A DNA stretch of 64,000 bases from a virus (IMGVR_UViG_3300037808_000364:48445-112444), one strand, 5' to 3'; shown: positions 45,378-59,107, counted from the first letter of the stretch. Notes: generated by a model not told the origin, from the sequence alone. Program-made: numbers and translations.

Positions 45378-45466
45378 GATGTAAGCCCTTGCACAGTAAG
45401 GGTTTACGTCTAGCGGCGGGGGCCGCGAGCGGCCTAACCCCTTTGGTAGTAACGACTTAGGGCAAT
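45378..45466. repeat. Double-palindrome element R1 (G-rich core)
   Basis: TAAGCCCTT-N7-AAGGGTTTA, then 53 bp on TAACCCCTT-N7-AACGACTTA. Confidence 0.9.
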
Positions 45467-45546
45467 ATCCGATTATCTTTTAAAACTTTCTAGATAGTGT
45501 GGCCTTTGGGGTTGTAATTTGTCGATAATATGTATATAATACTTAC

Positions 45547-45768
45547 ATGACAAACACAAACACAAACAACGAAAGAAACGACATGAGCAACATGCGATTG
45601 GCCGCAAGAACAATTATCCGTGAGTTTGCTGAGATGGAGTTGAACATGTACTATGTCGAAGAAGATATTCTGAACTATGCCGAAGGCGAGTTTGAAACGG
45701 CACTGTGGATGGCATTGGAAGAATACATTGCAGTAAATGGAGAATGGGATGGATATTCTGCAGAATAA
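45547..45768 (+). CDS. Small acidic early protein
   Basis: 73 aa; leaderless MTNTNT start in frame with downstream ATGs. Confidence 0.65.
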   Translation: MTNTNTNNERNDMSNMRLAARTIIREFAEMELNMYYVEEDILNYAEGEFETALWMALEEYIAVNGEWDGYSAE

Positions 45769-45817
45769 CTGTTGACAACTGTGGTCAAATGACAACCAAC
45801 AACACAAAGGGAAAACA

Positions 45818-45970
45818 ATGAGAATGGTTCTGGTTCTGGGTTTGGGTGGAATTGGCGGAGCTACTCGCCGCATCGTAAAACGTCTTACGGTCGTTGAGTT
45901 CCAAAACTACAAACTGCAGAACAATGAGGAATTTGACTTTTCTCAGTTTAAAACCCTGAACAGGGGTTGA
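45818..45970 (+). CDS. 50-aa protein resembling an internal segment of the HAD protein at 52132
   Basis: Manually translated ...KRLTVVEFQNYKLQNNEEFDFSQFK versus KSVSSLEFPGYKLGNGESFDFSEFR. Confidence 0.55.
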   Translation: MRMVLVLGLGGIGGATRRIVKRLTVVEFQNYKLQNNEEFDFSQFKTLNRG

Positions 45971-46031
45971 CTTTTGGGCAGATTTCTGCTATAATACACA
46001 CTCACAAGTTAAGTTTTTGAAAGTAAGTAAG

Positions 46032-46247
46032 ATGAAGAAAAAAGCAAGTCAACTAGTTCCCGGCGACGTAGTCGCAGGTTTCCACGGCAACCGCCGCGTT
46101 CTCAATGTTCCTTTCGCTGCTCGGCAGCATGGACAGAAGAAGGCTTCTATCCTTCTTCAAAATGTAGAGACTGGCGTTAAGTCTCATGTTCTTTGGGGTT
46201 TCCACACAACCATCTCAATGGTTTCAATTGTAGGAGTTGAAGTATGA
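46032..46247 (+). CDS. Small early protein, family B copy 1
   Basis: Nearly identical to 47224-47439. Confidence 0.75.
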   Translation: MKKKASQLVPGDVVAGFHGNRRVLNVPFAARQHGQKKASILLQNVETGVKSHVLWGFHTTISMVSIVGVEV

Positions 46248-46501
46248 CTGAATCGTGGCGAGACACAAGCGTGGAAGACGCAAACGAAAAAGCCGATAAG
46301 GCACTAGGGGTGGAATTTACCAACGACTTACGGATTCTACTGGAAAAGTACGGTGCGGCGATCCACATTGCCGAAAATCCACGGACTCAAAAAGAAGAAG
46401 TGAATTTTTACAGTCCTTCCAGATATGTGGATGGCGAACGAACAAAAGCCAATTTGGATGTGACTTTCCCAGATAATACCGCACCCTACGACTTGACGTA
46501 G
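46244..46501 (+). CDS. Hypothetical early protein
   Basis: 85 aa, ATGA overlap, AGGAG RBS. Confidence 0.65.
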   Translation: MTESWRDTSVEDANEKADKALGVEFTNDLRILLEKYGAAIHIAENPRTQKEEVNFYSPSRYVDGERTKANLDVTFPDNTAPYDLT

Positions 46502-46557
46502 ATTTCACATTCTGGTACAATACACACTTACAAGTTTTTGAGTTTTGGAGAGAGAAA

Positions 46558-46803
46558 ATGAGAGTTTCAGATTTGGTTGTTGCGGTTGGAATGATGAATC
46601 CACACAGGGTCGAAACGCGATCAGACGCCATTCAGGTCATCAGCAACGATTTTCAGGTAAACAGCTTTATTGAACAGTTTGGGGATGTTGTTATCGAATT
46701 CGATGAAAACGCTAATGTGTGGCGTGTTCCTGAGTTCGCTGGGGTCATCGCAAGGCACAACGAAGCAAAGACGCGAGATTGTCAAAGATGGGGAAGTGAA
46801 TAA
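46558..46803 (+). CDS. Small early protein, family C copy 1
   Basis: Paralogue of 48131-48379. Confidence 0.75.
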   Translation: MRVSDLVVAVGMMNPHRVETRSDAIQVISNDFQVNSFIEQFGDVVIEFDENANVWRVPEFAGVIARHNEAKTRDCQRWGSE

Positions 46804-46805
46804 TC

Positions 46806-46890
46806 GACATAAACCCTTGTCCTCAAACGACTTAGGTCGCTGAGGCCCGGCCCCCGGCAACTTAAACCCTTGCCACCAAAGGACTTACAG
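46806..46890. repeat. Double-palindrome element R2 (C-rich core)
   Basis: TAA starts at 46810 and 46863 (53 bp apart). Confidence 0.9.
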
Positions 46891-46974
46891 CGACTTTTAG
46901 CAACTTTGGAATTCTTTCCAGATATAGTGGCCTTTGGGGTTGTAAATTGACGATAATATGTATATAATACTGAT

Positions 46975-56949: not shown

Positions 56950-56985
56950 TTTTGCTTCTTCAGAAGATGTCGCCAAAGGGGGAAA

Positions 56986-57216
56986 ATGATGAAAGACATT
57001 ATTGTAGAATTTAGTGGTTGGGTTCGCATGACGCCTAAGAAAGTTTCTTTTGTGTATATTGGCTCTGACAAGCCAGATATCAACGGTGAACAGTGGCTTG
57101 CTCTTGACGAAGATGCTCAAAGTGATTATATTCTTGAAGATGTAATTACGGCACAGCGAGATTGTGACGATGGGGACTACGAACATATTGATGTTTTTGA
57201 AGATGACACACCCTAA
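56986..57216 (+). CDS. Small acidic protein
   Basis: 76 aa. Confidence 0.6.
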   Translation: MMKDIIVEFSGWVRMTPKKVSFVYIGSDKPDINGEQWLALDEDAQSDYILEDVITAQRDCDDGDYEHIDVFEDDTP

Positions 57217-57391
57217 AGGGGAAAATAATGACGGTTCATGATCTTGTGCAATTTATGAAATACGATCTGCCGGTTAAGATTCCGACAAATTGTACTTATG
57301 CTGACTTAGCGTCTTATGGTGCAAGTCGATTCGGATACCGATTCAAGAAAGTTGGTGACGATAGCATGGTTAGAATTTGTGGAGAGTGTAA

Positions 57392-57480
57392 ACGCTAACC
57401 CCTTACCCCGCAAGGACTTAGGGCGAAAGCCCGCCCCCCGCCGCGACGTAAGTCGTTGGTACCAAAGGACTTACGTCGAT
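57392..57480. repeat. Double-palindrome element R11 (C-rich core)
   Basis: TAA at 57396 and 57449. Confidence 0.9.
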
Positions 57481-57489
57481 TCCCCCCTG

Positions 57490-57506
57490 AGCAAATACCG
57501 TGCCAA
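57490..57506 (-). promoter_or_regulatory. Sigma54 consensus site, second copy
   Basis: Identical 17-mer to 54597-54613. Confidence 0.55.
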
Positions 57507-57581
57507 TAAATCCACAAGAAAAAACCCTAAAAGATTAAAGATCCAACTTGACAATGCCGATAATTATAGTATAATAACACT

Positions 57582-57794
57582 ATGACAGAAACGATCACCG
57601 TTTCAGTCCCTTGCCCGTTCTGCCAGAATCTGGCCGAACTGGATGTTCCTTTGCAGGGATACAAGGCGTGGCAGTCTGGCGAACTCGTCCAGAACGCTCT
57701 ACCTGATCTCTCTGCCGATGATCGCGAATTGCTGATCTCTGGTACGTGTTCAACGTGCTGGGATGAACAGTTCTCTTTCGACGACGAGGAGTAA
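57582..57794 (+). CDS. Small Zn-finger phage protein (CPFC...QNALP.LS...RELLISG.C..CW)
   Basis: 70 aa, leaderless start. Confidence 0.75.
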   Translation: MTETITVSVPCPFCQNLAELDVPLQGYKAWQSGELVQNALPDLSADDRELLISGTCSTCWDEQFSFDDEE

Positions 57795-57937
57795 GGGTCT
57801 GCAACCGTCGCCCTTAATAAGGGGTTTGGAGTTTTAGCAAGCTCTGCCGAAATCACTCAATTGCTAATGTCGCCCTTGACTTCCAGTCTTTGTACTGTAC
57901 AATGTATTTTCTGTTTCTCACTTTGAAGGGTTCTCTC

Positions 57938-58870
57938 ATGAACAAAATTATCACCGTTGCTGCTTCCGCTGCCTCTGCCTCTGTCCGCTCTGACTTCGAT
58001 TTCACGGTTGATAAATTTCCGCTGTTCGGCCCTGATAATATGAAAACGGACCAATACGGTCTGTTTCGCTCTACCGATGGCTACATCGAAGGCGTCAAGT
58101 CGATCTCTTCCCGCTACGTGCCACACACCACTGACGACGTGTGTGCATTGGTCGAAGCCGCTTCTGAGGCGTGGGATGGCGAAATTGAGTGTAAAACTCA
58201 CTGGAATCGTGGTCACTACGTGAACATTCAGCCCACGAACGCGGAGCGTCGTCGTATCTTTGGCGAAAATGACAACATCTGGCCTCGCGTGATGATTCGC
58301 GGTGGCTTCGATGGCAAGGGTTTTCAGGGAACGATGGCGTATCACCGTGATGCGTGCGACAATCTCGTGATGTTGCGGAAGGTGAACAGCACCACGGTCT
58401 CGATCCGTCACACGTCTGGCCTGCGTGCTAAGATGGATGAACTGATCGAAACCTTCGCGGTCCTGAAGGACGGCTGGGAAAATGTGGTTGCCGCTGCAGA
58501 GCGTATGCAGACGCGAAGCGTGGACCTCAGTGCGTTCGTGCGTGAAGTGTACGCTGACCGTATCCCATCTGATACGGAAATCCTTCTGGCCGAATCCGGC
58601 ACGAAGGTGCGTGCGGTGACCGTGTTCGCTAAGATGGTCGATACTATCATGGAGCGTGTCATAGACGAACGTGCTCGCACTCAGCGTGACGCTTTTGTCT
58701 CGGGTGAGTCGAAGGTCGTTTCTGCTTGGGAAGCCTTCAACGCGGTTCAGGGCTACGTTCAGCACGCTGCCCAGTCGAAGACTGGCTTCAAGTCTGAGTT
58801 TGCTCGGATTCTACGAGCGGGTGAAGATAAGCACGTTCGTCGTGCTGAGTCAATCGCCCTCTCTGCGTAG
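57938..58870 (+). CDS. DUF932/DUF945-family protein
   Basis: Y.PH...D, G.DG, R..C.N, IRHT and SAW.AFNAV..Y..H motifs. Confidence 0.75.
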   Translation: MNKIITVAASAASASVRSDFDFTVDKFPLFGPDNMKTDQYGLFRSTDGYIEGVKSISSRYVPHTTDDVCALVEAASEAWDGEIECKTHWNRGHYVNIQPTNAERRRIFGENDNIWPRVMIRGGFDGKGFQGTMAYHRDACDNLVMLRKVNSTTVSIRHTSGLRAKMDELIETFAVLKDGWENVVAAAERMQTRSVDLSAFVREVYADRIPSDTEILLAESGTKVRAVTVFAKMVDTIMERVIDERARTQRDAFVSGESKVVSAWEAFNAVQGYVQHAAQSKTGFKSEFARILRAGEDKHVRRAESIALSA

Positions 58871-59020
58871 TGTGAGCCTTAGGGTTTCTTCGCCTTCCCC
58901 CTTAGTGGGGGTTGGCTTCCACACCAGCAAGGAGCGATACTTGACCCAGTTTTTCGTGCTTGCCTTCCTTTTCGTAATTATCCATAGTTTCACAGACGAC
59001 TTTCAATAGAACGGCCCATC

Positions 59021-59107
59021 GTCGTAAGTCCTTACTATCAAAGGGTTTACGGCGGCGGGGGCCGGGCCATCTTTCCATAAGTACTTATTACCAAACACTT
59101 TACGTCA
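59021..59107. repeat. Double-palindrome element R12 (G-rich core, degenerate second palindrome)
   Basis: TAA at 59025 and 59078. Confidence 0.85.

Follow-up and report, generated by a model that had tools for sequence, protein, structure and literature searches.

The 64,000-nucleotide stretch of viral DNA considered here (IMGVR_UViG_3300037808_000364:48445-112444, hereafter the window) carries in its early region a series of paired palindromic elements, each of which stands upstream of a promoter and its cassette of small genes. The window makes up the final 64 kb of an IMG/VR virus record of 112,444 bp, for which CheckV gives a completeness of 67%, and positions are counted from its first letter. 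An earlier note on this DNA, made from the sequence alone, had described 12 elements of ~88 bp with two palindromes each, and a pattern scan recovers all of them at the places described. In the window, the palindromes have the form TAA-N4-TT, N7, AA-N4-TTA, usually flanked by CG...CG. The second palindrome starts 53 bp after the first in 11 of the 12 elements and 54 bp after it in the element at 51829, as the note had stated, and the core that separates them (28-29 bp) is 75-90% GC. A scan of the whole contig with at most three mismatches yields 19 palindrome matches, all within positions 45382-59049 of the window, and the reversed control pattern yields none in the same 112,444 bp. The pattern is thus absent from the structural arm, which agrees with the note, and from the 48 kb preceding the window.

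All 12 elements are followed on the + strand by a sigma70-type promoter-like site, as had been claimed, and one of these sites has a decayed -10 box. In module 1 (45382-45540), the palindromes at 45382-45406 and 45435-45459, with the GC core between them, precede an AT-rich linker and a TTGTAA/TATAAT promoter at 45512-45540; the start of the second palindrome is 77 bp from that of the -35 box, and the distances in base pairs given below are measured likewise. The same distance is found in module 2 (46810-46968; palindromes 46810-46834 and 46863-46887; promoter 46940-46968; 77 bp), which starts 3 bp past the stop of the open reading frame (ORF) 46558-46803, and in module 3 (47633-47791; palindromes 47633-47657 and 47686-47710; promoter 47763-47791; 77 bp). 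Module 4 (48523-48670; palindromes 48523-48547 and 48576-48600) is the copy with the decayed -10 box; it has a -35-like TTGCTA at ~48642 (66 bp), and the next consensus promoter is at 48783. Module 5 (49655-49801; palindromes 49655-49679 and 49708-49732; promoter 49773-49801; 65 bp) is followed by module 6 (50265-50410; palindromes 50265-50289 and 50318-50342; promoter 50383-50410; 65 bp), which overlaps the stop of ORF 49989-50267, and by module 7 (51829-51987; palindromes 51829-51853 and 51883-51907; promoter 51959-51987; 76 bp), the sole 54-bp copy. The longest linker is that of module 8 (52917-53168; palindromes 52917-52941 and 52970-52994; promoter 53141-53168; 171 bp), extended by a tandem repeat of a CCGCCAGCCA-type unit in 3-4 copies at 53040-53085. 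In module 9 (54507-54682; palindromes 54507-54531 and 54560-54584; promoter 54655-54682; 95 bp) the core is C-rich, inverted with respect to most copies, and module 11 (57396-57575; palindromes 57396-57420 and 57449-57473; promoter 57548-57575; 99 bp) also has a C-rich core. Module 10 (55786-55943; palindromes 55786-55810 and 55839-55863; promoter 55916-55943; 77 bp) returns to the most frequent distance, and module 12 (59025-59143; palindromes 59025-59049 and 59078-59102) has the shortest, with a TTTACA/TATAAT promoter at 59116-59143 (38 bp). Hence, eight of the 12 distances lie at 65-77 bp, within a range of 38-171 bp. In at least four copies the element overlaps or abuts the stop of the upstream ORF (ORF ends 50267, 51831, 52913, and 57398), where only two such cases had been counted.

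In all, 56 promoter-like sites are found against 23.5 expected, and twelve sites on the + strand match the consensus at 12 of 12 positions. At many early promoters, an ATG lies 6-7 nt past the TATAAT box and precedes a stretch rich in CA (ATGACAAACAACAACAC), for example at 45535-45563, 46963-46991, 47786-47814, 52120-52148, and 57570-57598. This arrangement suggests that the mRNAs are leaderless, or else that they share a CA-rich leader and have their true start further downstream.

The element is not a peculiarity of this contig. An exact scan of IMG/VR with TAAGTCCTT-N7-AASGACTTA finds at least 119 stretches, and in many of these several paired palindromes are present. Among the relatives that bear the element, five have genomes that are complete or nearly so (162-238 kb) and a large terminase subunit (TerL) 53-72% identical to that of the window, which itself is at most 26% identical to that of any cultivated phage; BLAST searches of the island for near and distant matches in 50,697 cultivated phage records return nothing. 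Each of the five relatives has 14-24 palindromes, all in a single island of 13-20 kb located a few kb from the terminase gene, so that the element is a clade-wide feature of the early island. In the 238-kb relative, which has terminal repeats, the island lies mid-genome, and a role of the elements as landing sites during DNA entry, one of those proposed at first, is not borne out.

Centre-to-centre spacing of the palindromes is constant within each genome and is 41/42, 49/50, or 52/53 bp depending on the lineage, around cores of 16-28 bp with 75-93% GC. The spacing of about five helical turns seen in the window is therefore not a rule, as it is 41-53 bp in the relatives and 50-90 bp in the candidate host chromosomes discussed below. 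What is kept is the sequence of the site itself. Its consensus across relatives is CG-TAAGTCSTT-GATAATC-AASGACTTA-CG, with TAA, TT, AA, and TTA invariant or nearly so, and conservation is seen at each position of the 29-33 bp site across lineages that differ in spacing. The N7 segments, previously described as divergent, thus share the consensus GATAATC, which makes the whole site palindromic. Such conservation all through the sequence, including the “loop”, is characteristic of a pair of half-sites that are recognized in double-stranded DNA.

The two sites of an element are not equivalent, and their differences point toward the downstream promoter. In the orientation of the promoter, the proximal site reads TAAGTCCTT...AACGACTTA, with a top-strand C in both arms (82 and 70%), and is followed by CGnCAA, whereas the distal site comes closer to perfect symmetry. 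Of 104 elements, 74 have a core whose G-rich strand is the sense strand. Across loci, 74 of the 106 modules with a recognizable promoter fall into four classes of palindrome-to--35 distance (43-45, 55-57, 65-67, and 76-77 bp), it being understood that these modules are related and not independent. The classes are about one helical turn apart, and the linkers, AT-rich with A-tracts, have diverged in sequence though their distances cluster. Site-to-promoter distances in helical-turn classes are also known for the Fis upstream sites of rrn P1 and for class I CRP sites; the motif is another one here, and the rRNA promoter of the candidate host carries no site. Polarity and phasing toward the promoter indicate that the element belongs to that promoter, rather than serving first of all to close the unit that precedes it.

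These features bear on the idea that the sites are protein roadblocks or insulators, at which a bound protein would stop read-through from upstream with no effect on the downstream promoter. Their position against or over upstream stop codons fits this idea, as does an island nearly devoid of intrinsic terminators on the + strand. However, roadblocks leave unexplained both the distance classes and the orientation toward the downstream promoter. As the whole explanation we consider them improbable, but a roadblock function may exist alongside the explanation favored below.

Another possibility is that the elements act as hairpins of RNA or single-stranded DNA, namely terminators of the promoter-early stem-loop (PeSL) type, RNase III processing sites, or structures resembling REP/BIME or attC. 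Indeed, each site is an imperfect palindrome, the entire 88 bp is roughly self-complementary, and single sequences fold at -20 to -40 kcal/mol. Pairing was examined in a covariation test on 515 paired palindromes from ~120 related IMG/VR loci, in which the arms of each palindrome were compared with arms shuffled within the contig. At variable positions, own arms form 2037 Watson-Crick pairs against 2100 +/- 16 for shuffled arms (z = -4). No covariation appears for each palindrome taken separately, nor in either of the long-range schemes that pair the element into a single long hairpin, nor when G-U wobble is allowed (z = -2.3 to -4.6); attC-type pairing is thus maintained in none of the schemes. 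Core sequences show no gain in folding stability over shuffled ones, and the folds predicted for single copies are inconsistent among copies and of equal stability on either strand. If the proximal site formed a hairpin, the C present in both arms would give a conserved C-C mismatch, and conservation of the “loop” is likewise at odds with a hairpin. Terminator-like sites are not enriched in the island (22 vs. 16 +/- 4 expected) and none lies within an element on the + strand; the elements have no T-tract and no match in Rfam (E <= 0.1).

These comparisons support the view that the elements behave as double-stranded DNA protein sites and not as RNA hairpins, an alternative that we now regard as very improbable. 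The earlier note had argued for two protein dimers bound on the same face of the DNA rather than for hairpins. The preference for protein sites over hairpins stands, given the lack of covariation and of excess folding in the core, and the shared face does not hold for the relatives with a spacing of 49/50 bp. A strand bias of G-U wobble pairs, first suspected in the window, was dropped because it disappeared in the large sample. As a separate observation, two arms that belong to one palindrome show a small but consistent deficit of complementarity relative to arms combined from different copies (z = -2.3 to -4.6; window and loci L005-L123), which may reflect an avoidance of perfect palindromes.

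The absence of pairing constraint also separates the elements from the BIME and RIB-RIP elements of enterobacteria, where two inverted REPs surround an IHF site and where the REPs are structure-constrained hairpins transcribed at operon ends. Both are composite extragenic repeats having two palindromic units round a central segment and a link to a nucleoid protein, but the units described here lack the constraint in all schemes and are tied to promoters; as regards membership of the REP/BIME/REPIN group, in which structure-constrained palindromes are mobilized by a RAYT transposase, no search for a RAYT gene was made.

The genes around the elements are exchanged between relatives. When positions 50-59 kb of the window are compared with the related loci L029, L064, and L031, the elements are kept at equivalent gene boundaries and the small ORFs adjoining them are replaced; in L067, whole cassettes are reordered with junctions at the sites. 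Over all loci, a gene keeps its neighbor on the far side of an element in 110 of 650 comparisons (17%), vs. 1073 of 2110 (51%) where no element intervenes. At equal gap size, retention with and without an element is 0.26 vs. 0.36 for gaps of 150-400 bp and 0.09 vs. 0.35 for gaps of 400-1500 bp. The expected enrichment of synteny breakpoints at the elements is therefore found, and is modest once gap size is controlled. Within the island, gene segments are duplicated in neighboring cassettes (46019-46238 and 47211-47430, 90% identical; 46603-46803 and 48179-48379, 75%), which indicates that cassettes have been duplicated there.

An integron-like system, in which the elements would be site-specific recombination sites, had been put forward on the basis of the arm-7 bp-arm geometry, which suits such sites, and the variation of cassette order between relatives with breakpoints at the elements agrees with it. 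However, no tyrosine recombinase (PF00589) is found in this contig or in four complete relatives by a search that is positive in 14 of 14 control genomes, which extends the earlier remark that the window holds no recombinase gene. Moreover, each cassette has at least one consensus promoter of its own, unlike the mostly promoterless integron cassettes, the arms are free of hairpin constraint, and the modest breakpoint excess in the gap-controlled comparison (0.26 vs. 0.36) fits homologous exchange between repeats as published for PeSLs. The integron-like model thus becomes extremely unlikely, the least probable of the explanations considered here. Homologous exchange between the repeated modules is sufficient to explain the cassette breakpoints.

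PeSL cassettes have been described in T4-type phages (Arbiol et al., 2010, PMC2839356; Comeau et al., 2014, PMC4122927), where the GC-rich part is a stable stem-loop shown to terminate transcription (PMC2839356) and where mini-circles arise via exchange between neighboring motifs. They share with the present modules a repeated intergenic unit of ~100-150 bp, in which a strong sigma70-type promoter is preceded by an AT-rich tract and accompanied by a GC-rich part. In both cases the early region is plastic, its small ORFan cassettes are bordered by these units, and the units mark the points of gene gain, loss, and replacement between relatives. Judged by sequence, PeSL is the nearest described system, and its defining stem-loop terminator appears not to be present here: the palindromes and core lack hairpin constraint in the tests above and no terminator-like site occurs at the elements. 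In contrast to PeSLs, the elements comprise two sequence-conserved palindromic sites at fixed spacing, which are present also at chromosomal promoters of the putative host, and they belong to an unrelated phage lineage, as the TerL comparison indicates. The motif strings themselves occur in no relevant paper of the literature library searched.

Outside the phage clade, a scan of one genome per prokaryotic species gives many single matches, with 29 Planctomycetota among the first 80 records listed. In a Planctomycetia metagenome-assembled genome (MAG), G002, 40 sites are found vs. 0 control matches, and in the 41 genomes of its family 253 sites vs. 6 (~40-fold). A sample covering the phylum Planctomycetota shows only ~1.3-fold enrichment (~158 vs. 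~121 control matches, counted by hand), which places the signal at the level of the family and not of the phylum. At least 13 loci of G002 have modules in which palindromes 89-90 bp apart are followed by a TTGACA/TATAAT promoter, with the start of the -35 box ~58 bp past the proximal palindrome. This fixed distance, too, would be unexplained by roadblocks. ORFs downstream of the G002 modules match no Pfam family.

Some details of the chromosomal copies deserve mention. In the phage clade, the promoter spacers contain a conserved CCGATA(A/T) ~8-14 nt upstream of the -10 box (46946-46962, 51965-51981, and 57554-57569 in the window; also L029, L030, L031, and L101), which could be an additional element of recognition; it is lacking from the host-type modules of G002, which carry AGAGTTAAGA in its place. 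One G002 module (L265, G002:C1:1668300-1670400) lies directly upstream of a CRISPR array with 15 repeats of 28 nt. In several genomes of other Planctomycetota, tRNA genes for Val, Pro, Met, and Gly have the palindrome 4-6 nt past their 3' end or immediately in front of them (L246, L248, L253, L255, L258, L249, and L250), and in Gimesia the tRNA-linked copy is followed by AT-rich, foreign-looking DNA. These copies could be the arms of integration sites or tRNA-linked regulatory sites; the positions 4-6 nt from tRNA gene ends count in favor of roadblocks. In another Planctomycetia genome, G238, an identical variant, TAAGTAATT-GAGAACA-AACGACTTA, recurs on at least 12 contigs and is probably part of a multicopy mobile element.

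The shared motif points to this Planctomycetia family as the putative host group. The same chromosomes provide a candidate for the protein that would bind the sites. The IHF-beta-like gene has a double site with a GC-rich spacer upstream in six of six genomes examined, G002, in which it is the best HU/IHF-family gene, and five other motif-rich genomes with orthologues; none of six loci of other HU/IHF paralogues has a site. In the five orthologue loci besides G002 the pairs are spaced by 50-64 bp, with a spacer of 54-92% GC, and the proximal site of the IHF-beta-like gene lies 95-120 bp before a conserved TTGACT/TACACT promoter. The candidate host genomes have 2-4 HU/IHF-family genes each, of which the best is closer to IHF than to HU; the IHF-beta-like protein scores 85 bits with the IHF-beta model and 47 bits with the HU model, and its best solved relative is IHF. 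Finally, CAA-N4-TTA, invariant or nearly so in the palindrome (92-100%), falls on those positions that are conserved in the IHF consensus of E. coli, WATCAANNNNTTR. The nucleoid-protein lead of the earlier note thus appears, from these sequence matches, to be the best one available; its further suggestion that operators or nucleoid-protein sites shut off the early promoters together fares less well, as nothing indicates shut-off.

Precedents exist for such an arrangement. The early promoters lambda pL and Mu Pe are stimulated by IHF, and the ihf genes are autoregulated by IHF. The proposal made here likewise places a host DNA-bending protein in front of an early promoter, on a defined face of the helix, and the predicted sites at the gene of the host protein itself would parallel the autoregulation. 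In contrast to these cases, the predicted sites are paired palindromes of 25-33 bp that precede about a dozen promoters.

The binder could instead be encoded by the phage or delivered with the virion, and would then switch the element-linked early promoters on or off together, in the manner of the SPO1 TF1 protein or of mycobacteriophage stoperator repressors. In those systems, the sites of cluster A mycobacteriophage stoperators and of SPO1 TF1 are bound by phage-encoded proteins and are single sites dispersed genome-wide or over early promoters. The presence of many copies of one protein site across phage transcription units is common to them and to our clade. Confinement of the sites to a single early island (13-20 kb) in each complete relative, their conservation over a phage clade with TerL identities of 53-72% to the window, and a fixed-spacing pairing suited to cooperative binding all agree with a phage regulator. 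In contrast, the same palindrome, double arrangement, and GC-rich spacer are found at Planctomycetia chromosomal promoters. The search for an HU/IHF-like phage gene suggested by the earlier note finds none in this contig or in five relatives at least 98% complete, and no other phage-encoded binder was found: the conserved island ORFs contain no Pfam DNA-binding domain, many ORFs being uncharacterized. Unlike stoperators and TF1 sites, moreover, the sites are paired and confined to one island. A phage regulator is therefore unlikely, if still the strongest of the competing explanations.

Several observations weigh against a host IHF-like protein acting at the phage promoters. As to the binder, the WAT part of WATCAANNNNTTR shows a preference of only 30-45% in the phage sites and is absent from the host sites, and a palindromic site of 25 bp differs from the single, asymmetric 13-bp cores of classical IHF sites. 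Being orthologous, the six IHF-gene loci amount to roughly one conserved observation, and a highly expressed IHF-like gene could just sit in the regulon of another factor. The 49/50 bp spacing of some relatives puts the two sites off the same helical face. As to the phasing, the distance classes derive from related modules and so give no valid p-value, and clustering of the linkers to count independent phasing events leaves nine clusters, with no signal and no power. As to the host, the link consists of motif sharing only: no spacer of the CRISPR array in G002 matches these phages significantly, and the MAG bins that contain TerL relatives are taxonomically scattered and uninformative. The phage is ~45% GC and the Planctomycetia loci look much GC-richer. 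The 16S rRNA promoter of G002 lacks the double site, so that the motif does not just label strong promoters of stable RNAs.

Taken as a whole, the data are best explained, with somewhat better than even chances in our estimate, if the elements are paired upstream sites of early promoters for a host protein, probably IHF-like, and also serve as recombination joints. Each element would be the upstream half of an early-promoter module. In such a module, two double-stranded DNA sites for a dimeric protein would be kept apart by a stiff GC-rich spacer of fixed length, and would be followed by the AT-rich linker, whose length classes are about one helical turn apart, and by the sigma70-type promoter. 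The binder would most likely be host-encoded, an IHF-like nucleoid protein of a Planctomycetia host being the best candidate, and its binding would activate the promoter rather than repress or insulate it. Since the same arrangement exists in Planctomycetia chromosomes, including at the IHF-like gene, the phage most likely borrows a DNA-bending regulator of its host: by copying the promoter-upstream architecture of the host, the incoming genome would recruit this factor to the promoters that it uses first. With about a dozen near-identical modules of 150 bp in one 14-kb island, homologous recombination could also use them as joints at which cassettes are gained, lost, and reordered.

Two other features of the window may be recorded. 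Just past the last element, a 52-nt repeat occurs in three copies (59152-59203, 59219-59270, and 59515-59566; 65-83% identical to a reference copy), all of which end in ...TAGCCAGCSAAAAT and which may be repeated leaders or small RNAs. In the virion arm, 9012-16634 (- strand) encodes a protein of 2540 amino acids with ~11 LamG (concanavalin-like) domains (Pfam E = 1.8e-242).

The early islands of a large and wholly uncultured phage clade, with more than 100 contigs in IMG/VR and complete genomes of 160-240 kb, share this element as a conserved landmark. The proposed model would account for early cassettes that are both expressed and shuffled without a dedicated recombinase. In a more specific version, which we consider rather doubtful, this 160-240 kb clade would have copied the autoregulatory double operator of the host IHF-like protein before every early cassette. 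If this were true, gene expression during take-over would be tied to the state of the host nucleoid, and ~24 strong sites per genome copy would soak up the host protein during replication, forming a DNA decoy that reprograms host transcription. For the clade itself, the element provides a sequence-based clue to the host, which points to a Planctomycetia family. More generally, it points to a previously undescribed promoter-upstream operator in a poorly studied phylum, with a concrete candidate binder, and the modules could be ready-made strong regulated promoters for the genetics of Planctomycetes.

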